From a virus (Duplodnaviria > Caudoviricetes): a DNA stretch of 64,000 nt. The stretch's first letter is position 1. The number at the start of each line of letters is the position of its first letter. The translations under genes and the position numbers were made by a program. The notes under the pieces are model-generated. The model did no database searches. It was given only the letters and a program-made list of their open reading frames with translations, and was not told the origin of the DNA. Shown piece after piece: positions 6,815-33,554 of the stretch. The stretch lies in the IMG/VR virus record IMGVR_UViG_3300025121_000014, positions 128,001 through 192,000 of that record, one strand, 5' to 3'.

Positions 6815-7155
6815 ATGAACTACCATTAATTTAAAAATTTAATGGTTTCTTTGTATATTTATTTACAAAAACTCCGTAGAGGCTCGTCCATTGAAGCAAA
6901 AGTAGATGTTTTTTAAAAACATATTTAAACTACAAAAAACTTGTTCGTCAAACAAGTTATCTGGTTGAAACTGAACCAGTTCAGTAATATGACGAAAACT
7001 ACTTTATTGATTTTACATCACTTAAGATTTAAAGTGATAACCAAATATATCAAAGAACTTTTATTTAATTATTATATATATTAAATAATTAAAGACTGTT
7101 TTTGTCAAATTCATCCTTTAAACTAAAGATTTAACGGTTTTCTTTGACTGGTCAT
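6815..7155 (-). mobile_element. ORF-less IS200/IS605 mini-element B
   Basis: Minus strand: TTTAT then atgaccagtcaaagaaaaccgttaaatctttagtttaaaggatgaatttgac LE; RE gaaaccattaa...ttaatggtagttcat. Confidence 0.85.
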
Positions 7156-7177
7156 ATAAAAAAAAATAAAAATAAAA

Positions 7178-9530: not shown

Positions 9531-10121
9531 TTAATTCATTTGTAACTGAGCTGATTTAATAGATTGTGTATATTCATTTTCAATATATTCTATTATATCT
9601 TTTATAATAATATCTAAATTTTTTCTATTTGTATTTAAAGTTTCCATTTTTCTAAAAATATCATTTATTACTTCACCTTTATTAAAATCTTTTATATATT
9701 TAGATAATTTATTAGTATTAAAATATATTCTACTTAATATAAGTATATCGTCATCATATTGTGTATTTATTACATTTCTTATTTTAGAATATATAATTGA
9801 TTTTCTATAAGTATCTGATATATCATCATTAATAATAATATCTTTAATTTGAATCATCACTATAAATTTAGATTTTTTTAGTGCAATATCTATAACATCC
9901 ATACTACTTTGTAAATCAAGAACATTTTTAAACCTATTAATTTCTTCAATTTTTGTCAATAATTTGGTATTTTGTTCATCAAATTGTTTTATTAATTCAC
10001 TATGTTGTTTTTTACGACTTCTATGATTTACTACAAATGGTACTATATAAACAATTGAAGCTATAAAGAATGCAATTAATGTATAAATGTTTGTAACATA
10101 TTTTACTATTTCACCGTCCAT
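9531..10121 (-). CDS. Hypothetical protein with single N-terminal transmembrane helix
   Basis: IYTLIAFFIASIVYIVPFVV followed by a basic stop-transfer segment and helical soluble domain. Confidence 0.65.
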   Translation of the reverse strand: MDGEIVKYVTNIYTLIAFFIASIVYIVPFVVNHRSRKKQHSELIKQFDEQNTKLLTKIEEINRFKNVLDLQSSMDVIDIALKKSKFIVMIQIKDIIINDDISDTYRKSIIYSKIRNVINTQYDDDILILSRIYFNTNKLSKYIKDFNKGEVINDIFRKMETLNTNRKNLDIIIKDIIEYIENEYTQSIKSAQLQMN

Positions 10122-13569: not shown

Positions 13570-14538
13570 ATGACACAAACTAAAGCATTTATTGATATTT
13601 ATACAAAAGACTATCCAGTAGGAAAAGTTTTGAAATGTAATATGTGGTTAGAAGGAGAATATACTGATAATATGGTATGTGAATTATTATCTAATGGATT
13701 AAGTGATTATGTGAATGGTATAAAAAAATTCAGAAATAAATATATTGTAGCTGGTTTTAAAGTTAATTTTACTATGTATTTTAAAAATAAAGATGAAAAT
13801 AATAGTTTTAATGAAATTATAATAATGGACGAAAGAGATTATAAACAGAACAATACTATATTATTAAATAATAATCGATTAAATAATAATCGATTAAATA
13901 ACATATCAATTACTAAAGTTGATGGTCGTGTTATAGTTGAAGGATCTGAAAATTCACAAAAAGTAGAACTTACATCCGATTTAAAAATAGCTACTGATGG
14001 TGGTTCGACCATAAATATTAATGATAAAACAACTGAAAAAAAGAAATTTGTAAAAGCTAATTTAAAAAATCTTAGACTATATTTATACAATAATGAAGAA
14101 TTAACCGAATTAAAACATAAATTAGAAATTGAATTTTTTAAAAGAAAATATAAATTAAGTGATGATGAATTTACATATTATTTAGAAAATAGAAATATTA
14201 TAAAACCCGAAAATATTAAAAAATCATTTAAAAGAAATGGTGGAGATGCATTTAAAATTAAAAAAAATAGAATTAGAAAAAAATTATTCCCACTTGATAA
14301 AAATGATAAAATAATTGATACTACTATAAAAAATGATAGTGAAAATATTGTTGAAAAAAAAAGTCCAATAATCCCTGAATTATCTCCTGATGCGATTAAA
14401 ATTGCATCTGAAATTAAACCAAAATCAAGAATTAAAATTATTAAACCTAAAACAACAAAATATAAAAAAATGAATGGAAAAACAACACCAGTATCAAAAA
14501 CAACAATTAATGAACTACCAACTACACTAAAGATGTAG
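13570..14538 (+). CDS. Hypothetical protein, paralog family copy 3 with C-terminal extension; 3' end supplied by IS right end
   Basis: TQTKAFIDIYTKDYPVGKVLKCNMWL...VAGFKVNF; reads into the IS at 14510. Confidence 0.7.
   Translation: MTQTKAFIDIYTKDYPVGKVLKCNMWLEGEYTDNMVCELLSNGLSDYVNGIKKFRNKYIVAGFKVNFTMYFKNKDENNSFNEIIIMDERDYKQNNTILLNNNRLNNNRLNNISITKVDGRVIVEGSENSQKVELTSDLKIATDGGSTININDKTTEKKKFVKANLKNLRLYLYNNEELTELKHKLEIEFFKRKYKLSDDEFTYYLENRNIIKPENIKKSFKRNGGDAFKIKKNRIRKKLFPLDKNDKIIDTTIKNDSENIVEKKSPIIPELSPDAIKIASEIKPKSRIKIIKPKTTKYKKMNGKTTPVSKTTINELPTTLKM
13864..13901 (+). repeat. In-frame 15-bp tandem repeat (about 2.5 copies; LNNNR)
   Basis: ttaaataataatcga x2 + ttaaataa. Confidence 0.85.
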
Positions 14539-15969
14539 TGGTTTCTGAATCGAACTGATTCATCTCTTTAAGCACTTCATTGCCGTTGCCTAATTTCTTA
14601 GGTCTTATTTTTGCTCCATGCTCGTAATCAGACGTTCCATCTGATATATTTTTTCTATATCCTTCATTGAGGATATTGATTGCTGCATTTACATCTCTGT
14701 CTTGTTTTTCACCACACTTACAATCCCAAGTTCGGTCTTTTAATGTTAAACCATTATTGATCCACCCGCACTTACTACAAGTCTTACTTGAAGGAAAAAA
14801 TCTATCTATGTGTATGACTTGTTTATCATTCCATTCAGCCTTGTATTCAAGGATATTAATGAAAGTTGACCAAGCAACATCTAAAATTGATTTGTTTAAT
14901 CCTGATTTAGCAGACTGACCATTTGGAAGATATTTACCATTTTCATCTTGTTTTGATTTACACCTATGAGACATACCTTTAACATTTAAGTCTTCAAGGT
15001 AAATCACATCAAATTGTTTTATTAAATCTAAAGCGGTTTTATGTATTAAATCCATTCTTGAATTACTTATCTTTTCATGTATCCTTGCAACTTTAATTCT
15101 TTGCTTTTCATAACGAATTGATTGTTTTACTTTTCTTGATAGAGATTGTTGATTTAATTTTAATTGATGTTGATAGTGTTTTAAAAATCTATGGTTCTTG
15201 ATTTTCGTTCCATTAGATAACACTAAAAAATCTTTTAATCCTAAATCTATTCCTACTGATAATCCACTTTTATTCATTGATATGTATTCCATTTCAGTTA
15301 AAATAGAAACAAAATACTTACCAGTAGGTGTTTTTGATATAACACAGTGTTTTATAACACCATTTATTTTACGTTCCATAATCATTTCAATACCATCTTT
15401 TCTAAACTTTGGTATGTAAAGTTTATTTTTCTTTACAGATACAAATTGTGGTATGGTAAATGAATTTTTTGATTTTCTTGACTTAAATTTTGGAAATTTT
15501 GTCCTCTTTTTAAAAAATCCATCATATGCAGTATCTAAACAATTTAAAGAAAATTGAAGTGTCTGACTATTAATTTCTTTCAACCATTTTTTATCTTCAA
15601 GTTTTTTAATTTGAGTTAATTCTTTTGATTGGTCATAATAATTTAAAGTTTTCTTATTGTTTAAATATTCATTTTTTCTTTGATTTAAAAAATAATTATA
15701 CACAAACCTCACTGAACCAAAATGTTTATTCAATAACACTTGTTGTTGTTCTGTTGGTTCTAATCTAAACTTATATGTATATCTAATTATTTTCATTTTT
15801 TATGTCAAAGTTTTTTCTTAACATAAGTATATATTAAAAGAAAAATGTCTGTTTTTCCATTTTTGAATTATTTATTAAAACTTTTAACTATTTTCAAAAT
15901 AATTAAAACCCGTTTTGGTCAAATTCATCCATTAAACTAAAGATTTAACGGTTTTCTTTGACGGTCAGT
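14510..15969 (-). mobile_element. IS200/IS605-family element, tnpB only (IS1341-like), no tnpA
   Basis: TTTAT target motif, LE hairpin at about 15917-15969, intact tnpB, RE hairpin ending GGTAGTTCAT at 14510. Confidence 0.9.
14522..15796 (-). CDS. tnpB: RNA-guided endonuclease TnpB
   Basis: N-terminal YKFRLEPT HTH; RuvC I GIDLG, RuvC II LED, Zn finger CSKCG...CKCG, RuvC III DRDVNAAINI all intact. Confidence 0.95.
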   Translation of the reverse strand: MKIIRYTYKFRLEPTEQQQVLLNKHFGSVRFVYNYFLNQRKNEYLNNKKTLNYYDQSKELTQIKKLEDKKWLKEINSQTLQFSLNCLDTAYDGFFKKRTKFPKFKSRKSKNSFTIPQFVSVKKNKLYIPKFRKDGIEMIMERKINGVIKHCVISKTPTGKYFVSILTEMEYISMNKSGLSVGIDLGLKDFLVLSNGTKIKNHRFLKHYQHQLKLNQQSLSRKVKQSIRYEKQRIKVARIHEKISNSRMDLIHKTALDLIKQFDVIYLEDLNVKGMSHRCKSKQDENGKYLPNGQSAKSGLNKSILDVAWSTFINILEYKAEWNDKQVIHIDRFFPSSKTCSKCGWINNGLTLKDRTWDCKCGEKQDRDVNAAINILNEGYRKNISDGTSDYEHGAKIRPKKLGNGNEVLKEMNQFDSETTTSLV

Positions 15970-15987
15970 ATAAAACAATAAAAATCG

Positions 15988-17886: not shown

Positions 17887-18183
17887 CTATTTTTTGTTTA
17901 AAAATTCTTTTAATATCTTATCAGTATCAGGCAAACTATTATGAATAAAATGAATCAATTCATTTATTTTATCATATTTATAGATATCATCTATATTTAA
18001 TTTTTCTAATAATCGTTCTTCTGGAACAATTTTTATATGTCCTTCTTCATTAAACCAATATGCTATTTCATATGTAGTTTCATCTGCAACCATATTTAAC
18101 AAAATTCCCACACCATTTCCAATTTGCCCTAGATAATCAATTACAGATATACTTAACAATGTTGAATCTATGAATTCTTTCAT
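17887..18183 (-). CDS. Hypothetical protein
   Basis: ORF track. Confidence 0.7.
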   Translation of the reverse strand: MKEFIDSTLLSISVIDYLGQIGNGVGILLNMVADETTYEIAYWFNEEGHIKIVPEERLLEKLNIDDIYKYDKINELIHFIHNSLPDTDKILKEFLNKK

Positions 18184-18299
18184 TTTTATTTGATTCTTTT
18201 TATTTAATATATATTGAAAATATGATTTTGTCTAATCAAAGAAGAATTGATTTTAAAAGATAAATATATTTTATATATAATAAAAAGATATAGTTATTC

Positions 18300-18671
18300 A
18301 TGCCTAATGCAGATATAAGAGATTACAATATTAGATATGTAGGACATCCTAAATATAACAGTAAAAGAGTTATAGAAGATCGTACTATTGAATTTGTTGT
18401 ACAAAAATTAGAAAATTTATTATTTACAAATAAAGGAGATGATTTAAGCGATCCAGAATTTGGCGCTAATATCGAATATTATTTATGGTCTACAAAAGTG
18501 CCAGTTGAAAAAATTAAAAAAGAAATTGAAAATCAAATAAATAAATATATATCAGAGCTAAATATAATGGGATATTCATTAAATCTCGAATTATATAAAG
18601 GTACTATTAGGGATATACTTTATATTAATATTAATATTAAAGATACTATTGTAAATTTTGTAATAAAATAA
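18300..18671 (+). CDS. Baseplate wedge gp25/GPW-like protein
   Basis: LENLLFTNKGD...DPEFGANIEYYLW motif of the gp25 family. Confidence 0.75.
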   Translation: MPNADIRDYNIRYVGHPKYNSKRVIEDRTIEFVVQKLENLLFTNKGDDLSDPEFGANIEYYLWSTKVPVEKIKKEIENQINKYISELNIMGYSLNLELYKGTIRDILYININIKDTIVNFVIK

Positions 18672-18682
18672 TAAAATAAACA

Positions 18683-19207
18683 ATGAAGTTAACAGATAAG
18701 CAAATAAAGGAAACATATATAAATGTATTAACTAGTACAAAAGTTAATGATATAATTAAGAAAAATAGCCAGGGACTTAAACTTGCGCTAAATGAACATA
18801 TATGGTTTGAAAAACAATTTGGTGTGAGAAAAGCAAATCTTAATTTTGCTATGACAACAGGTGAAATAGATGAATATGCCAAATGTAAAATGGATGTTCA
18901 TTACTTTGCAAATAAATATTGCCACATTAAAAGAGAAGACGGTACAATTGGACCAATGCAACTAAGAGATTACCAGAGAGATATTATAGATTTATATGTT
19001 AATAATAGATATTCTATATTAATGACTAGTAGACAATTAGGTAAGTGCAACTCCTTGGTAACCAGATTGTTAGTAAAATTTGACAATGGTGATGAATATG
19101 AAATTACTATGGGAGAATTATATTATACTTACATTCAACAAGAAAGAAAACTAACAATCATAGAAAAAATTAAACTTTTTCTATATAAAGCACTATCTAA
19201 ACTATAA
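18683..19207 (+). CDS. terL: Terminase large subunit N-extein (121 aa) + short split-intein N fragment (53 aa, 19046..19204)
   Basis: T4 gp17-like LRDYQ...MTSRQLGK, followed by Cys-initiated intein block A CNSLVTRLLV. Confidence 0.9.
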   Translation: MKLTDKQIKETYINVLTSTKVNDIIKKNSQGLKLALNEHIWFEKQFGVRKANLNFAMTTGEIDEYAKCKMDVHYFANKYCHIKREDGTIGPMQLRDYQRDIIDLYVNNRYSILMTSRQLGKCNSLVTRLLVKFDNGDEYEITMGELYYTYIQQERKLTIIEKIKLFLYKALSKL

Positions 19208-20827
19208 TATTTGATTATAAATATATTTTAAATTACCAGAATTATATATTCTATAAATTTTTCTTTCTAACATAATTTGATGTTCAGTTTTGTTAACATC
19301 ATAACCTTCTTTAATTAATTTATCTTTTCTGAAATTAAATCTATGGTGTCTAATTTGGTCAATAATATAATAATAATTAGGTGATGTTTTATGTATAAAA
19401 TCAAATCCTAAAACTTCATATAATTTTCCATTAGAATGACTTCTATCTGCATATGTAGTTATATTATCAAATTTATAATTTCTAATAAAATACTTAAATA
19501 ATTTACTAGCACATCCTATTACATTTGTATTAAGTTTATTACAAAACCTTAACATTTCATATTGTCCTTCGGTTTTTGAAGATGAATTCATAGATTTTCT
19601 TAATTTTCCAAAAGTCATTAATGAAATTAATTCATTTTCATAAAATAAACCTAATTTAATTTTACTTCCTACAAAACCTTGAATATGATTTTCATCTAGA
19701 AATTTTCTAACTAATTTATTATCAATTATTTCTTTAACTTCTGTTTTTCTAGCGTATATTTTGTTTGGTGTTCTACCTAACTTATTCAATATCATTGATT
19801 TAACTATATCTTGTTTATATACCCAATCATCTTCATATATATGAATTAATTGAATATTTTTTTTATCACATAATTCAGTTTTATCTAAATGATAATTATT
19901 CGGTCTATATAATTCATTATGCCAATAAACACCATTAAATTCAAATGCTAATTTTAAATCAGGGATATAAATATCTAATTCTTTTCCATCTAATATTTTT
20001 CTATCATTTGTTATTATTAAATTATTATAATTTTCTTTTATAAAATCTAATAATTTATTTTCTTTGTCAGAACCAGGATCATTAATAGGATTACATATTG
20101 TACATAATGTAGTATTAGTTTCTAATCTATTATAAAAAATTGTTTTAGGTATTTTACTTATATGATTATTACATTGATATATATAAGTATAATCTTCATA
20201 ATCAATATCAATAATATTGTTATTTTTATATTTTTGGATTAATTTATTTTTTTTATTAATTGTTTTTTTTTCTTGGGTAGATTTTAATTTTGATATATTA
20301 TCAACACCATATAATTTTAAATTAGTTTCTCTATATTTTTCTAAATTATTATAATTTTCATCACCATATTTTTCTTTTTTAGTAACTAACGATTGTTTAT
20401 GATTATTATAATTTTCATCACCATGTTTTTCTTTTTTAGTTTTTTTAATTTTTTCAATATGTTTTGTTGTTTTTGATGGGTGAGTCGTACCATATTTATC
20501 TAAACATGTTTTTATATATTTTTTACTATTTGTATAATTTTCATCACCATATCGTTCTTTTTTAGTTTTTTTCATTTTAATATATTTACATTTATTACAA
20601 TAATATAAGCCATCATCATATGTATTATTAATATATGTTCTATACTCCATATTTTTAATATCTCCACATATATCACATTTAACATCAATTTTAATTGGAC
20701 TGCCTTTAATTAAATCTTTTATATTTATATTTATAGTATCTCCTTTTTTGGCATCATAATTTTTATTTTTATAAAATGTAATATTTCTAGTACTTATATT
20801 CATTTTTACTTGTTCAGTTATAATCAT
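19202..20827 (-). CDS. Free-standing homing-type endonuclease (KYGxEN repeats + Vsr-like/PD-(D/E)xK nuclease + GNAT-like C-terminal domain)
   Basis: ELDIYIPDLKLAFEFNGVYWH; start set at MIITEQVK (20827) by comparison with paralog 27660..29276 and the upstream TATATA motif. Confidence 0.8.
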   Translation of the reverse strand: MIITEQVKMNISTRNITFYKNKNYDAKKGDTININIKDLIKGSPIKIDVKCDICGDIKNMEYRTYINNTYDDGLYYCNKCKYIKMKKTKKERYGDENYTNSKKYIKTCLDKYGTTHPSKTTKHIEKIKKTKKEKHGDENYNNHKQSLVTKKEKYGDENYNNLEKYRETNLKLYGVDNISKLKSTQEKKTINKKNKLIQKYKNNNIIDIDYEDYTYIYQCNNHISKIPKTIFYNRLETNTTLCTICNPINDPGSDKENKLLDFIKENYNNLIITNDRKILDGKELDIYIPDLKLAFEFNGVYWHNELYRPNNYHLDKTELCDKKNIQLIHIYEDDWVYKQDIVKSMILNKLGRTPNKIYARKTEVKEIIDNKLVRKFLDENHIQGFVGSKIKLGLFYENELISLMTFGKLRKSMNSSSKTEGQYEMLRFCNKLNTNVIGCASKLFKYFIRNYKFDNITTYADRSHSNGKLYEVLGFDFIHKTSPNYYYIIDQIRHHRFNFRKDKLIKEGYDVNKTEHQIMLERKIYRIYNSGNLKYIYNQIL

Positions 20828-20884
20828 ATTATTAGTTTTTATTTTATATATAAAAAGGTCAAAGTGTAAAATATCATTATTTAT

Positions 20885-21736
20885 ATGACCCGTCAAAGAA
20901 AATCGTTAAATCTTTAGTTTAAAGGATGAATTTGACATACCAAAATTAAAATTTACTGATATAGATTTACACAGAGAATTTAAAGGTGATATAAAAACTA
21001 TAACTATTTCAAAAACAACAACAAATAAATATTATATAAGTATTTTAGTCGATAACAAAAAAGAATTGCCTGAAAAACAACCAATTAAATTAGAAACAAC
21101 CGTTGGTGTCGATTTGGGAATTAAAGATTTTGTTATCACTTCAGATGGAAAGAAATTCAAGAACCAAGATTTCTTTAAATCTGCTTTAAAGAAACTAAGA
21201 GTTGAACAGCGTTCCCTTAGTAGAAAACAAAAAGGATCAAACCATTATTTAAATCAAAAATTAAAGGTTTCATTATTTCACGAACACATTAAAAACCAAA
21301 GAGAAGATTACTTACATAAAATAACTAAATACCTTGTAGATAATTATGATACAATTTGTATAGAAAATCTTGGTGTTTCTAATATGATGAAAAACAATAA
21401 GTTAAGTCGTGCTATAAGTGATATGGGTTGGTTTAAATTTAAATCATTTCTTGAATATAAATGTGAATGGTATGGAAAGAATTTAAGTGTGATTGGTAGA
21501 TTTGATCCTTCATCAAAAACATGTTCTGTTTGTGGAAAAATAAATAAAGAATTAACATTAAAAGACAGAAACTGGAAATGTAATTACTGTGGAACAGAAC
21601 ATGATAGAGATATAAATGCTGCAATTAATATAAGAAATTTTGGGTTGAGGAACCAACCTAGCGTTACACAAAGTGAATGGTTGCATTGTGCTTGTAGCGT
21701 AGAAACACACAAATCTTCAGTTTGTGCGTAGTTCAT
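20885..21736 (+). mobile_element. Internally deleted IS200/IS605 element
   Basis: TTTAT then LE atgacccgtcaaag...gaatttgac fused directly to mid-tnpB; RE ends GTAGTTCAT at 21736. Confidence 0.9.
20937..21731 (+). pseudogene. tnpB: 5'-truncated tnpB (RuvC and Zn finger retained, N-terminal lobe and start codon lost)
   Basis: Frame IPKLKFTD...VGVDLG...IEN...CSVCG...CNYCG...DRDINAAINI; in-frame TAA at 20907 and no in-frame ATG ahead of RuvC I. Confidence 0.85.
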
Positions 21737-21776
21737 ATATTTTTAATTTGAATTAGTTTATTTAATATATAATGTT

Positions 21777-24026
21777 ATGATTAAATTATTTATAAAACAG
21801 ATAATATATTTAATAATAGAATTATTAGAAAAAATGGAATATAAAAATAATTCATTTGATGAAAATAATCCATTAAAAAAAATTATTAATACTATTCCTA
21901 TTGATAATGTTTCTATTGAAACCGATTATGGGTTTGTTCCTATAACTGAAATGAATTTAACTGCGCCATTATCATTATATAGATTAGAATTAGATAATGG
22001 AGATTGGTTAGAATGTGCAGATGATCATATAGTATTCACAGAAGGACATCAACAAAAATTTGTTAAAAATTTAACAACAGATGATAAAGTATTATGTAGA
22101 GAAAATTATATTGAAGGTATAAAAGTTAAATCAGTTAAAAATCTTAAAAGAAAAGTTAGTTTAATGGATATTACAGTAGATACTAATGAAAAAAGTTATT
22201 TTGCTAATAATATCTTAAATCATAATACAGTTTCAGCCGCAATTGTAATATTGCATTTTTGTTTATTTAAAGAAAATAAAGGTGTTATGGTTGTAGCAAA
22301 TAAAGGAAAAACAACAATAGAAATTATAGAAAAAATAAAAAGTATTTATAAATTATTACCATTCTTTTTAAAAGCGGGTATTATTAATTGGAATCAATCA
22401 AGTATTACTTTTGACAATGGTTGCCAAATTAAAACGGAAAAAAGAACTAAGGAACCTGCAATCGGTTTTACAATAGATCTCCTTTATCTTGATGAATTTG
22501 CTCATATACCTGAGAATTATATTGTACCGTATTATACTGCGGTTGTACCAGTTGTATCTAGTATTGAAAATTCAAAAATTATTATCACATCTACGCCAAA
22601 AGGATTAAACTTATTTCATAAATTATTAATAGAATCTGAATTACCAGAAGATGATCCTAATTGGAATGGTTATCGTTCTTTAAGAGTATACTGGTGGCAG
22701 GTAAAACATAGTAGAGATACAAAAATATTCTTTAACGAAAAGAAATTAAGAAAATATAAATTAAATAAAACTGAATTAAAACAATTCTTAATTGAAAATA
22801 AATATAACATTTATGAAAAAAACGAAAATAATTTAAATGGTATATTTATAAATTATGAACCAAATGAAGAAAGTACTCAGATTGATTATATAAGAAACTT
22901 AAGATATAACGAATTACCTTTATCTGAATTAGGTATGATTACTAATTGGGAGGAACAACAAACTAAATTGATTGGCGGAGAAGATGGTTTTAAACAAGAA
23001 TATGATCTTCATTTCTTAACAGGTAATAAAATGTTATTTGATAGTGTTCTTCTAGAAAAAATGATGGAAGACAAATTACCATTTGAATATTATAGTATTC
23101 CTATATTTAATGAAAAATTAAAAATACCTTATAATAATTTAACATTTGTTAAAGGACAACCAGAATTATTTGATATGAAAAAAGTAAAAGATTATCATAT
23201 TTTTATATCAATTGATTTAGGTGAAGGATTAGGTCAAGATTATAGTGTTATTAATATATTTAGAGTAATGCCAAAAACATCAGAAGAATTAAATTATTTT
23301 AAAAAACGAATTGATGGATTGTATGATTATTTTAAACTTGAGCAAATCGGTATGTTTAAATCAAATATTTATTCAGTTAAAGAAGTATCATTAATATTAT
23401 ATATGATTACTTTCGAATTATTTAATGATAATAAAGTAAGAATAGCACTTGAAAGAAATGTATATGGTGATGAACTTATTGCTCATATGCCACATGTTTT
23501 TGACGATAACAATAATTATTCTAGTCACGTATTTTTAAGATATAAACATAATTTAGAACAAAAAACATCTAGAATGGGAATAAAAGTTAATAGGAATAAA
23601 TTATCATTAATAAAAGATTATCAAATACAAACGAAAAAGGGAAATATTGTTATTCGTCATTTAAATACTATTACCGAATTAAGTACATTTACTAAAAAAG
23701 AAACTCCTAGTGGTGGAATTACATATCAAGGAGAAAGTGGTCACGATGACCAGGCAATGACGGTTATTGTTTTAGCAACAATATTTAATCATGTAGGATG
23801 GAAAAATTGTATTGAAGAATTTATGAAAGAAAATAAAGATAATAGAAATCTAATACATAATGATTTTAACAAAATTGTTGATGAATATCAAGCAGATATT
23901 GGTGATATTAAAACGTTTCAAATTTCATATAAAAAGATTTATAATAAAAATTACAATCCTAAAAATCAAAAACAAGTTGGATATGGTGGTAAAATAGCAC
24001 CTCCCATTTTTCCAACAAGAAGATAA
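21777..24026 (+). CDS. terL: Long split-intein C fragment (150 aa, 21777..22226) + terminase large subunit C-extein
   Basis: Block B LECADDHIVF, block G YFANNILNHN/T; then Walker B LLYLDEFAH, TSTP coupling motif, nuclease SIDLGEG...HDDQAM. Confidence 0.92.
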   Translation: MIKLFIKQIIYLIIELLEKMEYKNNSFDENNPLKKIINTIPIDNVSIETDYGFVPITEMNLTAPLSLYRLELDNGDWLECADDHIVFTEGHQQKFVKNLTTDDKVLCRENYIEGIKVKSVKNLKRKVSLMDITVDTNEKSYFANNILNHNTVSAAIVILHFCLFKENKGVMVVANKGKTTIEIIEKIKSIYKLLPFFLKAGIINWNQSSITFDNGCQIKTEKRTKEPAIGFTIDLLYLDEFAHIPENYIVPYYTAVVPVVSSIENSKIIITSTPKGLNLFHKLLIESELPEDDPNWNGYRSLRVYWWQVKHSRDTKIFFNEKKLRKYKLNKTELKQFLIENKYNIYEKNENNLNGIFINYEPNEESTQIDYIRNLRYNELPLSELGMITNWEEQQTKLIGGEDGFKQEYDLHFLTGNKMLFDSVLLEKMMEDKLPFEYYSIPIFNEKLKIPYNNLTFVKGQPELFDMKKVKDYHIFISIDLGEGLGQDYSVINIFRVMPKTSEELNYFKKRIDGLYDYFKLEQIGMFKSNIYSVKEVSLILYMITFELFNDNKVRIALERNVYGDELIAHMPHVFDDNNNYSSHVFLRYKHNLEQKTSRMGIKVNRNKLSLIKDYQIQTKKGNIVIRHLNTITELSTFTKKETPSGGITYQGESGHDDQAMTVIVLATIFNHVGWKNCIEEFMKENKDNRNLIHNDFNKIVDEYQADIGDIKTFQISYKKIYNKNYNPKNQKQVGYGGKIAPPIFPTRR

Positions 24027-24041
24027 TGTAGTTCATTAAAC

Positions 24042-24160
24042 AAAAAATATCTATTTTTTCATTTTTGAAAAACTTATAATTATTTTCGAAATATAAGGTA
24101 TAATTGAAATAAATCCACCTAAATTAAAGATTTACTGGTTTTCTTTCAAAAAATTTATAA
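24042..24160 (-). mobile_element. Decayed IS200/IS605 left-end relic
   Basis: aaaaaatatctattttttcatttttgaa...aaatccacctaaattaaagatttactggttttctttc aligns by eye with 15841-15960 (tnpB upstream region + LE). Confidence 0.6.
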
Positions 24161-24175
24161 ATAAATTTAAAAAAA

Positions 24176-24958
24176 ATGGGAGAAATTAAATATAAAATTA
24201 CAAGTGATAATTTAACAAAAATAATAGATACAGTCAGAGATTTAAGCGTAATAGATAAAAAAGGTGTTATACGATTTAATAAAAAATATGTACTTATTTA
24301 TTCCTTAATAGGAGAAGGTGATGTTATAAATGTGTTTAAAAGTTTTGTATTTAAAACAGAAGAACTTTTTACAAATATAGATGAATTTGATGAAACAATA
24401 AATTTTGTCGTAAAGGATATGAAGAATCTTTATAGAACACTTAAAATAATGGCAGATTTAGGTGATAATGTAGACGGAAAAATATTTTTTGATGAAATAG
24501 GTAAACTATTTTTTTCAGATCGTTTATATTTTAAATCTACTAATAAATTAAAATTGAATTTTTATGGTAATGATCCTACTAAAACAAATACAAGAATAAC
24601 ATTAGATCAAATTAAAAAAATTGCTAATGTAGATAATTCGTCTTTTAATTTTAATTTAAAAAGTGAAGATTTTGTCAATATTAAAAAATTAGCATTACCA
24701 GATGATGAAATGGATATTTTTTATATGAATACATTTGAAAAAGATGGTGATTATTTTGTATCTATTGGGGAAACTAATTGGAACTTAACATTAGATCAAA
24801 TAGATCTAAAAGAAGAAAGAACACTAGCATTTCCAAAAAAGTATTTTAAAACTATTAATATAGATAAAGAAAATGTAAAAGTATATGTATTTGATACGTT
24901 TTTATTAGTATCTTCTGATAATTCTAATTTAATCATATCAATAGAAATAACTGTTTAA
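24176..24958 (+). CDS. Putative DNA sliding clamp (gp45/PCNA-like)
   Basis: 260 aa, two-domain alpha/beta pattern; FNLKSEDFVNIKKL and FPKKYF...VKVYVFDTFLLVSS resemble clamp domain 2. Confidence 0.5.
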   Translation: MGEIKYKITSDNLTKIIDTVRDLSVIDKKGVIRFNKKYVLIYSLIGEGDVINVFKSFVFKTEELFTNIDEFDETINFVVKDMKNLYRTLKIMADLGDNVDGKIFFDEIGKLFFSDRLYFKSTNKLKLNFYGNDPTKTNTRITLDQIKKIANVDNSSFNFNLKSEDFVNIKKLALPDDEMDIFYMNTFEKDGDYFVSIGETNWNLTLDQIDLKEERTLAFPKKYFKTINIDKENVKVYVFDTFLLVSSDNSNLIISIEITV

Positions 24959-25104: not shown

Positions 25105-26062
25105 ATGAATAGAAAACTAAATGTATTTTCCGCATTTGATGGAATAGGAACTGGATACCAAGTCTTAAAAGAATTAGGTTATGATTGCAATTATTATGCA
25201 TCAGAAATAGAACCAAATTCTATTGCCATTGCTATGAAAAATCATCCTGATATAATACAATTAGGCGATATAGAAGAAATTACAAAAGAAAGTTTTAATC
25301 ATGATATAGATTTAGTTATTGGTGGAAGTCCTTGCCAAGATTTATCAACTCTAATGCGAGAAGGCGAAGGTTTAAAAGGTAGTAAATCAAGATTATTTTT
25401 TAAATATTATGAATTATTACAAAAATTAAAACCTAAATATTTCCTATTAGAAAATGTTAAAATGAAAAAGGAATATGAAGAACAAATTACAAATTTATTA
25501 GGTATTCAACCATTGAATATAAATTCTAATTTGGTTTCGGCACAAAATAGAAATAGATTATATTGGACCAATATTCCAGTTGCATCTATTCCGGAAGATA
25601 AAGGAATTTTATTAAAAGATATTATAGAAGATGGTTATGTGAATAGATATAAATCAAATTGTATAACTGAAAGCACATGTAGAGCTTGTAATACTCCATC
25701 TGGTTTTCGAAGATATATTGCAAAAAAATATGGCACAATTTGTATTTAAAGATAAAGACGAATATCAAAAAATAGTCGGTATAACTGATGAAGATAGGAT
25801 TAAATATTCTAAATGGATATGGAAACAAAAAGCATCTGATTTAGTAGATGGTATTGATACACCACGAATTAGGAAAATGACTCCTAATGAAGTAGAAGCA
25901 TTACAAACTATGCCCAAAGATTATACTTATATAGAAAAATTATATTTAAATTCAAAAGGAATATATAATCAAAATAGTGGTGATTATATTAGAATATCAG
26001 TATTAGGAAATGGATGGACTAAAGATGTAATTAAACACCTTATGAAAAATATGAAATTTTAA
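25105..26062 (+). CDS. dcm: C5 cytosine DNA methyltransferase in two overlapping ORFs (25105..25749 and 25718/25730..26062)
   Basis: Motif I FDGIG, IV GGSPCQ, VI LENV, VIII QNRNRLYW in ORF1; IX RKMTPNEVEALQ and X LGNGW in ORF2; frames join at A7 run 25722-25728. Confidence 0.85.
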
Positions 26063-27659: not shown

Positions 27660-29276
27660 TTATTTTAAATTCTTTAAATATTTAAATTTTAAATTACCAG
27701 AATTATAAATTCTATAAATTTTTCTTTCTAACATAATTTGATGTTCTGATTTATTAGCATCATAACCTTCTTTAATTAAAACATCTTTTCTAAATCCAAA
27801 CCTGTGATATCTAATACCATCAACGACATAATAATAATTTGGTTTAGATGTATGTGAATATATGAATCCTAAATATTCATATAATTTTCCAGTTGAATGG
27901 CTTCTATCTGCATACGTAGTTATTTCTTTAAATTCATAATTTCTTATAAAATATTTAAATAATTTTGAAGCACCACCTATTACATTAGTATTTAATTTAT
28001 TACAAAATCTTAACATTTCGAACTGCTTTTCTTTTGAAACTGAATTCATCATTTTTCTTAATCCACCAAAAGTCATTAAACTAACTAATTCATCTTTATA
28101 AAATAATCCTATTTTAATAGATGATCCCATAAATCCTTGAATATGATTTTCAGCCAAAAAGTTTCTGACTAATTTATTATCTGTTATTTCTTTTACTTCT
28201 GTTTTTCTTGCATATATTTTATTTGATGTTTTACCTAACTTATTTAAAATCATTGATTTAACTATATCTTGTTTATAAATCCAATCATCTTCATAAATGT
28301 GTATTAATTGAATTTTTTTTTCATCACATAAATCAGATTTTATTTTATGATAATCGTTTGATTTATATAATTCATTATGCCAATAAACTCCATTAAATTC
28401 AAATGCTAATTTTAAATCAGGTAAATAAATATCTAATTCATAAGGATTTATTATATTCCTATCATTTGTAATAATTTCTTCTTTATAGTTTTCTTTTATA
28501 AAATCTGATATTTTTATTTCAGAATCAGATTTAAAATTGAAACCTATTGAATTACACTTAGTACATAACGTAGAATTTAAAATTAATCGATTTTTTAATA
28601 ATCCTTTATTTATTTTAAAAATTTGGTTACAATTATTACATTTAATAAAATAATCCGGATTATTATAATTTATAACTATAATATTATATTTATCTTTATA
28701 GTATTTGATGGAATTTTTATTTTTAATATTTTGTATTTTTTTATATAATTCTTGTTGTATTTCTTTAGATTTTAATCTATATTCAACTCCATATTTTTCT
28801 AAATTTGTTATTTTAATTTTATCCCATACTTCTTCTGTTTCTAAACCATATTTCTTTCCGTATTTACTTAAATTAGTATTTTGAAGTTTTTTAATTATTG
28901 TATTTGAATGCATAGGGTGATCAACACCATATTTTTTTAATAATGTATTTTTAGATTTTTCTTTTATTTTATCTAATTGAAAAATATTTTCAACATTATA
29001 TTTATCATTTAATCTTCTAATACATTTATCATTAGAACATTTTTTAGAGCAACAATATTCTTCTGTTAAATTATTAGTATTTTTGATATATTGGAAATAT
29101 TTTAATTTTTTTTCTAATCCACATATATCACATTTTACTTTAATTTCAACATGACTATTTTTTGATAAATCTGTTGGTTTTACCAATGAATATTTTAATA
29201 AAACATCATACCCTAATTGTTCATAATGTTTTTTTAATTTTCTATTATTAATTTTTACTTCTTTTGTAATAATCAT
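27660..29276 (-). CDS. Free-standing homing-type endonuclease, paralog of 19202..20827
   Basis: Same architecture: CDICG, KYGVE repeats, ELDIYLPDLKLAFEFNGVYWH, near-identical C-terminal ~290 aa. Confidence 0.8.
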   Translation of the reverse strand: MIITKEVKINNRKLKKHYEQLGYDVLLKYSLVKPTDLSKNSHVEIKVKCDICGLEKKLKYFQYIKNTNNLTEEYCCSKKCSNDKCIRRLNDKYNVENIFQLDKIKEKSKNTLLKKYGVDHPMHSNTIIKKLQNTNLSKYGKKYGLETEEVWDKIKITNLEKYGVEYRLKSKEIQQELYKKIQNIKNKNSIKYYKDKYNIIVINYNNPDYFIKCNNCNQIFKINKGLLKNRLILNSTLCTKCNSIGFNFKSDSEIKISDFIKENYKEEIITNDRNIINPYELDIYLPDLKLAFEFNGVYWHNELYKSNDYHKIKSDLCDEKKIQLIHIYEDDWIYKQDIVKSMILNKLGKTSNKIYARKTEVKEITDNKLVRNFLAENHIQGFMGSSIKIGLFYKDELVSLMTFGGLRKMMNSVSKEKQFEMLRFCNKLNTNVIGGASKLFKYFIRNYEFKEITTYADRSHSTGKLYEYLGFIYSHTSKPNYYYVVDGIRYHRFGFRKDVLIKEGYDANKSEHQIMLERKIYRIYNSGNLKFKYLKNLK

Positions 29277-29280
29277 AATA

Positions 29281-30213
29281 TTATATTTTTATTTTAAATT
29301 CTGTTAATGGAAATTCTTGTGGTTTATAAATTTTTTCTCTTCTTGATATATATTGATTATATATAATATTTTTATAAGATGGATGATATTGATCAACTAT
29401 ATCAAACACAACTAACTTTTCTTTATCTGCATGTAATCTTAATCCACGACCAATTGATTGTCTAATTATTTGATCTGATTTAAAACTGTCAGCAAAAACA
29501 ACATTCATTAAATTTTTAACATTTATACCTGTTGAAAATGTTCCAAATGACGCAATTAATATTTTTGGTTTATTATCCGATATCTCCATTATTTTTTTAA
29601 TTTTTTCTCTTTTATCTTTATTAGTACCACCGTCAATATAATAAAAGAATTTATCTGTAATATTATCTCTAAGATATTCATATAATTCTGTACCATATAT
29701 TATATTATGAAATAATATTAATGAATTGCTTGTAAACTTATCTACTAATTTTTTGAAGAACATTTTCCTTCTTAATGATTTTTGAGCAAATTCTTTTTCT
29801 AATAAATATGCTTCTTTTCCTTGACCTCTTTTTTTAATAGCATACATTTTTTGTGAGAAATCTTCTTCATCATGATTTAATATCATAGCATTAATTTTTA
29901 CCTTAGATACTAGACCTTTATCCATTAATTCTTTAGCTTTAACAGTCATTAATTTAGGTCCCATTAAAGATTGAATAGTAAGAATTTCGGCTGAACTATT
30001 CGGTGGATATGTTCCAGATAACCCCAATCTATAAATAGCATTACCAAATGTTTTAGATAGTATTGTATCTAAACTTTTTGCTTTTGCTACGTGGCAATTA
30101 CTAACACATATTCCATTAGCAAAATAATTATTATTTATATCATTTCCTTCTTTTATTCTTATATTATAAACGTCACCAGTATAATCTATTTTTTTAATTG
30201 ATTTAATTTTCAT
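29281..30213 (-). CDS. uvsW: Split-intein C fragment (39 aa, 30097..30213) + UvsW helicase C-extein
   Basis: MKIKSIKK...VYNI...YFANGICVSN/C, then CH (completes DECH), LSGT motif III, ASFGTFSTGINV motif V, QSIGRGLR motif VI. Confidence 0.9.
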   Translation of the reverse strand: MKIKSIKKIDYTGDVYNIRIKEGNDINNNYFANGICVSNCHVAKAKSLDTILSKTFGNAIYRLGLSGTYPPNSSAEILTIQSLMGPKLMTVKAKELMDKGLVSKVKINAMILNHDEEDFSQKMYAIKKRGQGKEAYLLEKEFAQKSLRRKMFFKKLVDKFTSNSLILFHNIIYGTELYEYLRDNITDKFFYYIDGGTNKDKREKIKKIMEISDNKPKILIASFGTFSTGINVKNLMNVVFADSFKSDQIIRQSIGRGLRLHADKEKLVVFDIVDQYHPSYKNIIYNQYISRREKIYKPQEFPLTEFKIKI

Positions 30214-30237
30214 TATAATTTTTTATCATTTTTATTT

Positions 30238-31293
30238 TTACATATTAAAATCTATAATATCATCATTTTCTAATAAATTGTCTACTCTTTTCCATATACC
30301 ATTTTTTAATAAAACTTTATGATTTCCTGTAATATAGATAAATTCACCATTTTCTAATTCTAATTCATACATATTTTCAAATTTAGATAAGTTTTTGTAA
30401 ACATAATCAACCTGTTTTATTTCTTTTTCTTTTGTTAATTCATTAAATGTCCATACTTCATCTCCTATATTAATATTTTTTATCATTTCTTTATTACCAG
30501 ATCCCATTTCTATTAAAGTATTAGGGTGTAAACATTCATCTGTGACAACAATATCAAATTTTTTGAAATAATTGATATCATATTTATCCGATGATAAACT
30601 TTGATAAGTTCCAATATAAATATTAGGTTCTTCACCATCTCTTACTTTTCTTGGCTTATCAGAAAATACTTCTTCTATTTTCAAATTAAATGGATTTGTT
30701 TGTTCTTTATTAAATCCTAAATTATAATCTAATATTTCATCGTAAAATTGAGTTACTAAACTCATTCTAGGTACAATTAATAGAACTTTAATATCAGGAT
30801 TGATAAACTTCATTATGTAAAATATAAACGTTGAAAATATAAGAGATTTTCCACCAGCAGTTGCTACTTCAATTAAACCAAATTTATATTTCAACATTTG
30901 AAATACAGCATCTATTTGATGTTCATAAGGCATAAATAATCCTAATGGATTATCTTTAGTTGGAGGAACTCTATAATTTTTAAAAAATTCTTCAACAAAT
31001 TCTTTAACATCTTCTAATTTGATATTTAAATCAAATGGAAATGATGTCTTATCGACATCAAATTTATAATCATGATTCCGACAACATTTATATACTTCTT
31101 TCCAAAGACCGTATCTTATAATACCATTATGAAAATGATCAATAGAACCATCCCAAACTCCTAATTTATGTCGTTTTTTAAAATGATATCCTTCTACTTT
31201 TCTAGTAAGATGTAATTTTAATTGATGATATTCTTCATGAGTAGATTCTTTAATTATTATCTTATTTTTGTCGTCTGTTATTACTAATTTCAT
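30238..31293 (-). CDS. uvsW: UvsW helicase N-extein + split-intein N fragment (98 aa, 30241..30534)
   Basis: PYEHQ Q-motif, ATAGGKS Walker A, IVVTDE then intein CLHPNTLI...ITGNHKV (TxxH block B). Confidence 0.9.
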   Translation of the reverse strand: MKLVITDDKNKIIIKESTHEEYHQLKLHLTRKVEGYHFKKRHKLGVWDGSIDHFHNGIIRYGLWKEVYKCCRNHDYKFDVDKTSFPFDLNIKLEDVKEFVEEFFKNYRVPPTKDNPLGLFMPYEHQIDAVFQMLKYKFGLIEVATAGGKSLIFSTFIFYIMKFINPDIKVLLIVPRMSLVTQFYDEILDYNLGFNKEQTNPFNLKIEEVFSDKPRKVRDGEEPNIYIGTYQSLSSDKYDINYFKKFDIVVTDECLHPNTLIEMGSGNKEMIKNINIGDEVWTFNELTKEKEIKQVDYVYKNLSKFENMYELELENGEFIYITGNHKVLLKNGIWKRVDNLLENDDIIDFNM

Positions 31294-33174: not shown

Positions 33175-33496
33175 ATATGTTTCTTTCAAAATAATTTGAA
33201 AAACTCTTTTTACAGAGGCTCGTTCATAAAAGCAAGTGTTAGATGTTAAAAAACATATTTAAACTAACAAGACTTGTTAAAAACAAGTCACTAGTCAAAA
33301 ACGGACTAGATCGTTTTTAAAAACTTAACGTGTTTAACCTCAATGATTTTACTTGATCTAGGTTTGTAGATCAAAACTATTAAATCATTTCAAAGAACTT
33401 TTATCTAATTACTATATATATTAAATAATTAAAGACTGTTTTTGTCAAATTCATCCACTAAACTGAAGATTTGGTGGTTTTCTTTGACGGGATCAT
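33148..33496 (-). mobile_element. ORF-less IS200/IS605 mini-element C
   Basis: TTTAT then LE atgatcccgtcaaag...; RE gaaacatatttag...ctaatgtgtagttcat; mosaic of elements A and B. Confidence 0.85.
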
Positions 33497-33554
33497 ATAA
33501 AATTAGAAGATATATGAAACTATATGTTTCATAAAAAAAATAATAAAATAAAAA

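Follow-up and report, generated by a model that had tools for sequence, protein, structure and literature searches.

Dassa et al. (2009; PMC2677866) described genes that are fractured at split inteins and accompanied by free-standing endonucleases of the Vsr-like or GIY-YIG type; one of their loci, from Lake Gatun, encodes a gp17-like terminase. Atypically split inteins in the large terminase subunit (TerL) are also established: the pieces of AceL-TerL have 25 and 104 amino acids (Cys1/Cys+1), those of GOS-TerL have 37 and 115 (Ser1/Cys+1), and Cat is their consensus (PMC11766414; PDB 6dsl). Here we analyze a TerL gene that is broken within an intein in a 64,000-nucleotide stretch of a tailed virus (Caudoviricetes; positions 128,001 to 192,000 of IMG/VR record IMGVR_UViG_3300025121_000014); the whole of this stretch is referred to as the window. 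We infer, with a probability of roughly 85%, that the two intein fragments constitute a working class-1 intein, split in nature, by which the large terminase is rebuilt post-translationally. The system is of the same kind as those above and differs from them in the insertion site at Walker A GK/T with Thr at +1, the split within a helical hairpin, the full range of genomic states of one family, and the replacement of the gap between the half-genes in the window.

The TerL gene is represented by two separate open reading frames (ORFs), one of 174 codons (18683-19207, plus strand) that ends with the N-terminal intein fragment (IntN) and one of 749 codons (21777-24026, plus strand) that starts with the C-terminal fragment (IntC) (Table 1). 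The first-pass annotation of this DNA, made from the sequence alone, had read the former as a TerL N-terminus that runs to Walker A SRQLGK and continues as a Cys-started fragment of 53 residues, and the latter as a 150-residue fragment with block B CADDH and the ending ILNHN, followed by Thr; the translations bear out both readings. The IntN opens with C-N-S-L directly after SRQLGK; the IntC contains block B C-A-D-D-H and block F D-I-T-V-D and ends with I-L-N-H-N, after which the C-extein begins with Thr. The C-extein matches Pfam Terminase_6N, T4 gp17 (E 8e-29), and phrog_2. The alignment of the N-extein reaches gp17 residue 166, and residue 3 of the C-extein corresponds to gp17 169, hence Thr+1 is T167 (3ezk numbering). 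Together, the exteins cover gp17 at K166/T167 with zero gap and zero overlap, so splicing would restore Walker A SRQLGK/T exactly, as the annotation had proposed. Both junctions are spanned, with zero differences, by Logan contigs from a groundwater run (18488-19817 and 21648-23216); the only runs that contain the window DNA are DNA metagenomes of groundwater and soil, with no RNA run among them, and its G+C content is 20-25% throughout. Apparent joints in Logan contigs were considered as an allele that lacks the endonuclease gene and were rejected (their sides are short, 20-44 nt, and of low-complexity or paralogous sequence).

Table 1. Coordinates of the features of the split TerL locus in the window.
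Feature	Position	Strand	Description
TerL N-extein	18683..19045	+	121 residues; C-terminus is Walker A SRQLGK (T4 gp17 K166); gp17 93-166 aligned; match to phrog_5989, terminase large subunit
IntN	19046..19207	+	53 residues and stop; Cys1; beta-hairpin and short helix (~1-29), amphipathic helix (~33-53)
Free-standing homing-endonuclease gene	19202..20827	-	541 residues from ATG 20827; ORF open to TTG 20896 (564 residues)
61-nt repeated element	20877..20937		between the endonuclease start and the TnpB relic; holds the 25-nt motif CTAAAGATTTAACGATTTTCTTTGA (minus strand, 20893-20917)
TnpB (IS200/IS605 OrfB) relic, 5'-truncated	20910..21731	+	273 open codons; first start codon TTG 21066
TTTAATATATAA promoter-like motif	21761..21772	+	ends 5 nt ahead of the TerL-C ATG
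IntC	21777..22226	+	150 residues; head helix (~1-19), conserved E-Y-[KR]-N..D-E-N linker, HINT core
TerL C-extein	22227..24026	+	599 residues and stop; Thr+1 (gp17 T167); remaining ATPase domain and C-terminal domain

The identification of the fragments as an intein is based on sequence and fold. In searches of solved inteins, the IntC alone matches NrdJ-1 (E 8e-4) and gp41-1 (E 8e-3), and the profile of its family matches gp41-1 (E 3e-10), VidaL (1e-9), and CatC (6e-9); the match to Pfam Intein_splicing is below threshold (22.9 bits vs a cut-off of 35.8). The window pair has the residues of a class 1 intein (Cys1, Thr+1, the block B His, the block F Asp, and the C-terminal His-Asn), a predicted HINT fold, and an in-frame position at a conserved site in the host protein, with exteins that sum to a whole TerL. 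For the fold, we used a natural relative in which the intein is contiguous (cis; locus L014, where L-numbers designate related loci whose states were read locus by locus). Its AlphaFold2 model (predicted local distance difference test score, pLDDT, 83; predicted template modeling score, pTM, 0.72) has the HINT fold; the top 50 PDB matches in Foldseek are all HINT-fold domains, nearly all of them inteins, with the GyrA, VidaL, gp41-1, and DnaB inteins at E ~1e-7.

The predicted complex of the two window fragments has a score of 0.77 (pLDDT 84-86), whereas the best control has a score of 0.01. Of 78 solved complexes, 51 attain this mark, as do two of 108 mismatched pairs. The model supports the binding of IntN to IntC. 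In it, IntN residues 37-53 lie on the head helix of IntC (contacts at 37, 39-40, 42-43, 46-47, 49-50, and 53 in IntN and at 3, 6-7, 10-11, 13-14, 17-18, and 20-21 in IntC), and the helix–helix contacts are spaced i, i+3/4, that is, one face of each helix is used; the IntN tail is conserved among relatives.

Several observations weigh against trans-splicing, either as the activity of this pair or as the source of the phage's terminase. The block B position is Thr in most inteins; it is Ala throughout this family, as it also is in the VidaL sequence. Some relatives have Leu-Asn or Ser-Gln at the C-terminal junction, not His-Asn; the splicing route need not be identical in every member of the family. 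The memory of solved split inteins in the prediction model may contribute to the score of the complex. The promoter-like motif of TerL-C begins only 12 nt before the ATG, as compared with the usual 25-32 nt (vide infra), and, as the window covers 64 kb of the genome, a second intact TerL could possibly be encoded elsewhere in the window phage. The predicted binding and the lack, in some relatives, of either the penultimate His or the final Asn could also be accommodated if the halves associate via their intein fragments without splicing, either as a two-chain, non-covalent TerL or as a regulatory association; however, approximately 200 residues would then stay inside the P-loop between its Lys and Thr, and the window pair retains all of the canonical catalytic residues. 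Conservation in the family also argues against association alone: all 26 of the IntN examined begin with Cys, and the block B His, the block F Asp, and Thr or Ser at +1 are retained family-wide. We consider association without splicing to be quite unlikely. Among 32 family members, no variation is seen at A126 (the block B Ala), D127, H129, or D173.

Selection and gene content bear on a further alternative, namely that the broken TerL gene is decaying as a pseudogene while a different terminase, encoded elsewhere in the genome, packages the DNA. The window is only part of a genome; its N-half protein is recorded on contigs as long as 232,944 bp. Additional TerL-like ORFs of ~390 residues do occur in two relatives (L058, 1453-2622; LR756501.1, 699893-700732). 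However, these intein-less ORFs contain the ATPase part and lack the nuclease half, and that in L058 has also lost the Walker A lysine (S-R-Q-V-G-I-N-V-T). In the window, both ORFs are intact and under purifying selection (in the comparison with L054, a 69%-identical relative, dN/dS, the ratio of nonsynonymous to synonymous divergence, is similar in IntN (0.18), IntC (0.24), and the N-extein (0.15), with dS near saturation); both halves have the same lengths in the window and L054; and the replaced segment between the half-genes ends no more than 18 nt from the stop of the N half and 2 nt from the start of the C half. Also, no TerL besides the split one was found in a 96%-complete, 363-kb relative, which supports the earlier proposal that the pair is essential. 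A pseudogene is, in our judgment, very improbable.

The first-pass annotation had regarded the fragment sizes as unusual and had named atypically split TerL inteins of the AceL-TerL type as a known precedent. The sizes, 53 and 150 residues, are real, but they do not identify a new split position. As judged from sequence and models, the break is topologically at the AceL/GOS/Cat-type site, where this family has an insertion of very roughly 60 residues (a helical hairpin and a linker) that is broken in the loop. In the L014 model, the beta-core is preceded by a hairpin of two helices (30-41 and 46-64), and the split maps to the loop that connects these helices; the family profile aligns with CatC only from position 39, that is, CatC starts where the beta-core of IntC starts. 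An extra helix in each half and the conserved IntC linker (E-Y-R-N..D-E-N-D-I-S-K-K) thus account for the 53/150 sizes; across the family, the length of IntN ranges from 42 to 73 residues. Like the AceL, GOS, and Cat inteins, the window intein interrupts a T4-type TerL from uncultured phages and is split near its N-terminus, with equivalent topology; it shares 28% identity with Cat in the Foldseek alignment. Unlike them, it has the extra helices and the linker; when AceL and GOS are compared by the +1 residue, the family has Thr (at Walker A GK/T) instead of Cys; and the match of the family profile to CatC is no stronger than those to gp41-1 or VidaL. The family, therefore, corresponds to the AceL-TerL type in split topology but not in IntN length, the +1 residue, or closeness to CatC.

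A near-identical pair of cis and split alleles confines the insertion to 71 nt. Between L014 (cis) and L012 (split), identity in the two flanks is 98% and 95%, and the sole further difference is that a 71-nt segment of the former (9933-10003) is replaced by a 1209-nt cassette in the latter, exactly at the hairpin. The helices of the L014 protein are joined directly by S-R-K-N; at this position, the split form has a stop codon, an endonuclease gene, and an ATG, and the two cis forms have no Met. This pair fits the insertion model of Dassa et al. As a tentative suggestion, to which we assign somewhat less than even odds, the two amphipathic helices beside the break may be a built-in zipper that provides high affinity between the fragments; this would explain how the system tolerates loss of the endonuclease, turnover of the gap, and dispersal of the halves over at least 12 kb in the largest known phage genomes. 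In that case, the family would represent in nature what coiled-coil-assisted split inteins achieve by engineering, and it would offer a fresh atypically split scaffold with Cys1 and Thr+1 for which all natural stages between cis and dispersed are represented. For protein engineering, its Thr+1 and possible affinity helices make this atypically split intein a candidate tool.

Contiguous mini-inteins in the TerL P-loop are known from cultured phages. That of Vibrio phage VAP7 (Ackermannviridae, MK795384.1) has the same insertion point (..SRQSGK/C...SHN/T) and is 49% identical over the C-terminal 102 residues of the HINT core. It differs in being contiguous and without an endonuclease gene, and the segment between its first hairpin and the core has no detectable similarity to the hairpin of the huge-phage inteins.

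The intein belongs to a large family that is widespread in huge phages. The IntC is encoded by 50 IMG/VR loci, and 41 clusters of N-half proteins (167-180 residues) match the window N half over most of its length, with those in the examined loci ending at the same point; wherever both ORFs are visible, IntN runs into a stop codon and IntC starts with an ATG. The window TerL is nearest to those of 'uncultured phage' LR7565xx genomes of 460-735 kb (44-49% identity), from the huge phages that Al-Shayeb et al. reported (2020; PMC7162821); the split TerL is also present in those of 735 kb and 462 kb, and intein-less TerLs are encoded by LR756504 and LR745206. The largest known phage genomes, the 735-kb record holder included, appear to depend on protein trans-splicing for their packaging motor. 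The papers that describe the LR7565xx genomes do not mention a split TerL, and our search of the literature found no description of the family, although this is no proof of absence.

The homologous intein occurs in every stage, that is, contiguous, invaded by an endonuclease gene, with the endonuclease lost, dispersed, and with the gap invaded again by a different endonuclease and an insertion sequence (IS). In the majority state (21 distinct gaps, including that in LR756500.1), the halves are 0.98-1.24 kb apart and are separated by one gene of 320-420 residues on the same strand. The closest relatives of the window (L053-L056; N half 69% identical, synteny kept) are in this state. The endonuclease gene is truncated in L019 (589-nt gap) and missing in L015, L020, L029, and L036, in which the halves are adjacent (60-224 nt apart); in L014 and the L027 group, the intein is contiguous. 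The halves are dispersed in the 735-kb LR756501.1, where the intervening 12.4 kb contains radical-SAM, GT2, and methyltransferase genes as well as a gene for a gp32-like single-stranded DNA-binding protein on the opposite strand, and in the contigs of L005 (~12 kb) and L003 (~11 kb). In a tree of TerL, loci with the endonuclease gene occur throughout, and the adjacent, cis, and dispersed states are nested among them; the adjacent state has four separate origins, and the window is sister to L054. In two loci (L040, 10001-13345; L044, 9008-12418), the C half has ~1115-1137 residues and contains a second, contiguous intein further into TerL (residues ~665-1066), that of L044 with a LAGLIDADG domain; also, L017 has a transfer-messenger RNA (tmRNA) gene (1242-1656; 62 bits) ~3 kb upstream of its split TerL.

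These states also bear on whether a group I or group II intron might instead excise the 2.6 kb between the halves from the transcript, so that the mRNA would encode a contiguous cis-intein. The terL genes of the Jug huge phages are split by group I introns, with support from RNA reads (PMC12880540), and small intron ribozymes can elude covariance models. However, Rfam has no match in 18000-24500 of the window at E<=1 and no intron at the gathering score in seven related loci; the stop after IntN is conserved, as is the ATG of IntC, the latter in the split forms only; the gene in the window gap is antisense; and the halves in relatives can be separated by 12 kb that includes unrelated genes on both strands. 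We regard an RNA intron as extremely unlikely and retain protein trans-splicing as the explanation.

The same-strand genes in the gaps of relatives constitute a single family with a Ros-type zinc finger and a nuclease core. The best PDB matches of their profile are weak (I-Bth0305I, 3r3p, E 0.064; Vsr, E 0.26), and Pfam MTES_1575 and DUF559 are below cut-off; these matches, although weak, are coherent and point to the endonuclease family of Dassa et al. The loci resemble those of Dassa et al. in that an essential phage gene is present as two ORFs with intein halves (a stop after IntN and a separate start for IntC) and a free-standing homing-endonuclease gene between them, and, in the relatives, in the zinc finger and the putative Vsr/I-Bth0305I-like core of the endonuclease. 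They differ in that the split is located in a helical hairpin near the N-terminus instead of at the canonical endonuclease-domain site, in the addition of endonuclease-free adjacent forms and forms dispersed over ~12 kb, and, in the window, in that the endonuclease gene is antisense, is of a DUF7487 and Mom-like lineage, and is located beside a TnpB relic.

That antisense gene and the IS relic within a break of ~2.6 kb had both been recognized in the first-pass annotation, and our searches agree. The antisense ORF matches phrog_3339 ('homing endonuclease') over its full length (E 2e-115); its start is probably ATG 20827, by comparison with a paralogue at 27660-29276 (58% identity) and a homologue in L054, and its stop codon, on the minus strand, overlaps the last sense codon of TerL-N, that is, the genes are tail to tail. 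The protein has DUF7487 repeats (Pfam 20.7 bits, below the 27-bit cut-off), a C-terminal domain that resembles Mom (also by Pfam), and a putative Vsr-like nuclease core (E-F-N-G-V-Y-W-H), which can be aligned with the nuclease core in the endonuclease profile of the relatives (hhalign probability 81.5%); single-sequence PDB searches with the window endonuclease and a relatives' endonuclease gave nothing significant. The other gene in the gap matches Pfam OrfB_IS605 (9e-27) and Cas12f1-like TNB (2e-24) and retains the RuvC and zinc-ribbon domains. It corresponds approximately to residues 122-395 of an intact 424-residue TnpB encoded elsewhere in the window (42% identity); since ~117 N-terminal residues and the start codon are missing, we designate it a relic. 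The gene for the intact TnpB (14522-15796, minus strand) has a copy of the 61-nt repeated element ~120 nt upstream.

Copies of the 61-nt element were located with blastn at 7103-7163, 15918-15974, 20877-20937, and 33443-33501 in the window and, upstream of tnpB, at 231-285 in L054; the 25-nt motif CTAAAGATTTAACGATTTTCTTTGA has three copies in the window as compared with zero expected. The element also holds CTAAAGATTTAACGGTTTTCTTTGA, and three of its five copies precede a tnpB gene or relic, each time with the same relative orientation. The element may represent the end of an IS or a promoter.

The content of the window gap is probably derived: in place of the usual same-strand endonuclease gene, it contains an antisense one from another lineage and a TnpB relic. 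A tblastn search of the gap with the 352-residue endonuclease of the relatives detected no remnant, and a search of the gap for direct and inverted repeats found AT-rich chance matches only, with no target-site duplication.

We propose the following history and mechanism. The ancestor would have been a contiguous intein at the same site, already with the helical hairpin; the cis forms, too, have the helices, which need not, therefore, have been added after the split. A free-standing Vsr-like homing endonuclease gene would then have entered the DNA for the hairpin loop, thereby supplying the stop and start codons. In the window lineage, the resident gene would later have been replaced by the antisense endonuclease gene of another lineage beside a TnpB insertion sequence, and the latter would afterwards have lost its 5' part, with both half-genes left intact to the codon. 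The TerL-N-IntN (174 residues) and IntC-TerL-C (749 residues) polypeptides would be translated as separate proteins. The 53-residue IntN is predicted to dock on the 150-residue IntC, with its first ~29 residues completing the HINT beta-fold and its C-terminal amphipathic helix packing on the N-terminal helix of IntC. Cys1, the block B His, the block F Asp, the terminal His-Asn, and Thr+1 would then perform standard trans-splicing, so that Lys and Thr are joined and the Walker A GKT is regained. For the window, the computational evidence supports the earlier description, in which an essential TerL is fractured by a naturally split intein with an atypical split site and the break has accumulated both an endonuclease gene and an IS relic.

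The TerL-C gene had also been assigned its own promoter. The motif ahead of it, TTTAATATATAA, has three exact copies in the window and 44 copies with no more than one mismatch (26 expected), and a T-A-T-A-T-A-A-type core is located 25-32 nt before the ATG of ~10 other genes, including the gp25-like gene that is 11 nt upstream of TerL-N. The recurrence of the motif is in favor of this assignment but its spacing from the TerL-C ATG is not, so that a separate promoter, and with it the separate, similarly timed transcription of the halves, is plausible from the sequence. A scan for sigma-70 sites was uninformative (48 sites vs 43.6 expected), and a scan for terminators found none. The T-A-T-A-T-A-A(A/T) motif, which resembles a T4-type late promoter, is found before the ATGs at 2518, 10207, 18300, 26102, 31771 (minus strand), 31970, 32653, 36866, and others.

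Two other genes in the window are each read as two ORFs. A C5-cytosine methyltransferase (25105-26062, plus strand) is encoded by two overlapping ORFs (214 and 114 residues), both of which match Pfam DNA_methylase; possible readings are a frameshift, a pseudogene, and some other interruption. A second split intein is present in a UvsW-type helicase (29281-31293, minus strand), the halves of which are 24 nt apart: the N half is a 351-residue ORF (30238-31293) with an IntN of ~99 residues after ..VVTDE, and the C half is a 310-residue ORF (29281-30213) with a 39-residue IntC that ends in VSN and is followed by Cys-His. Splicing would restore motif II, DECH. The DUF7487 endonuclease paralogue (27660-29276) is encoded just downstream of the split UvsW; L054 has an uninterrupted UvsW of 522 residues, and in L053 a DUF7487 gene is located directly upstream of a 310-residue Helicase_C ORF.

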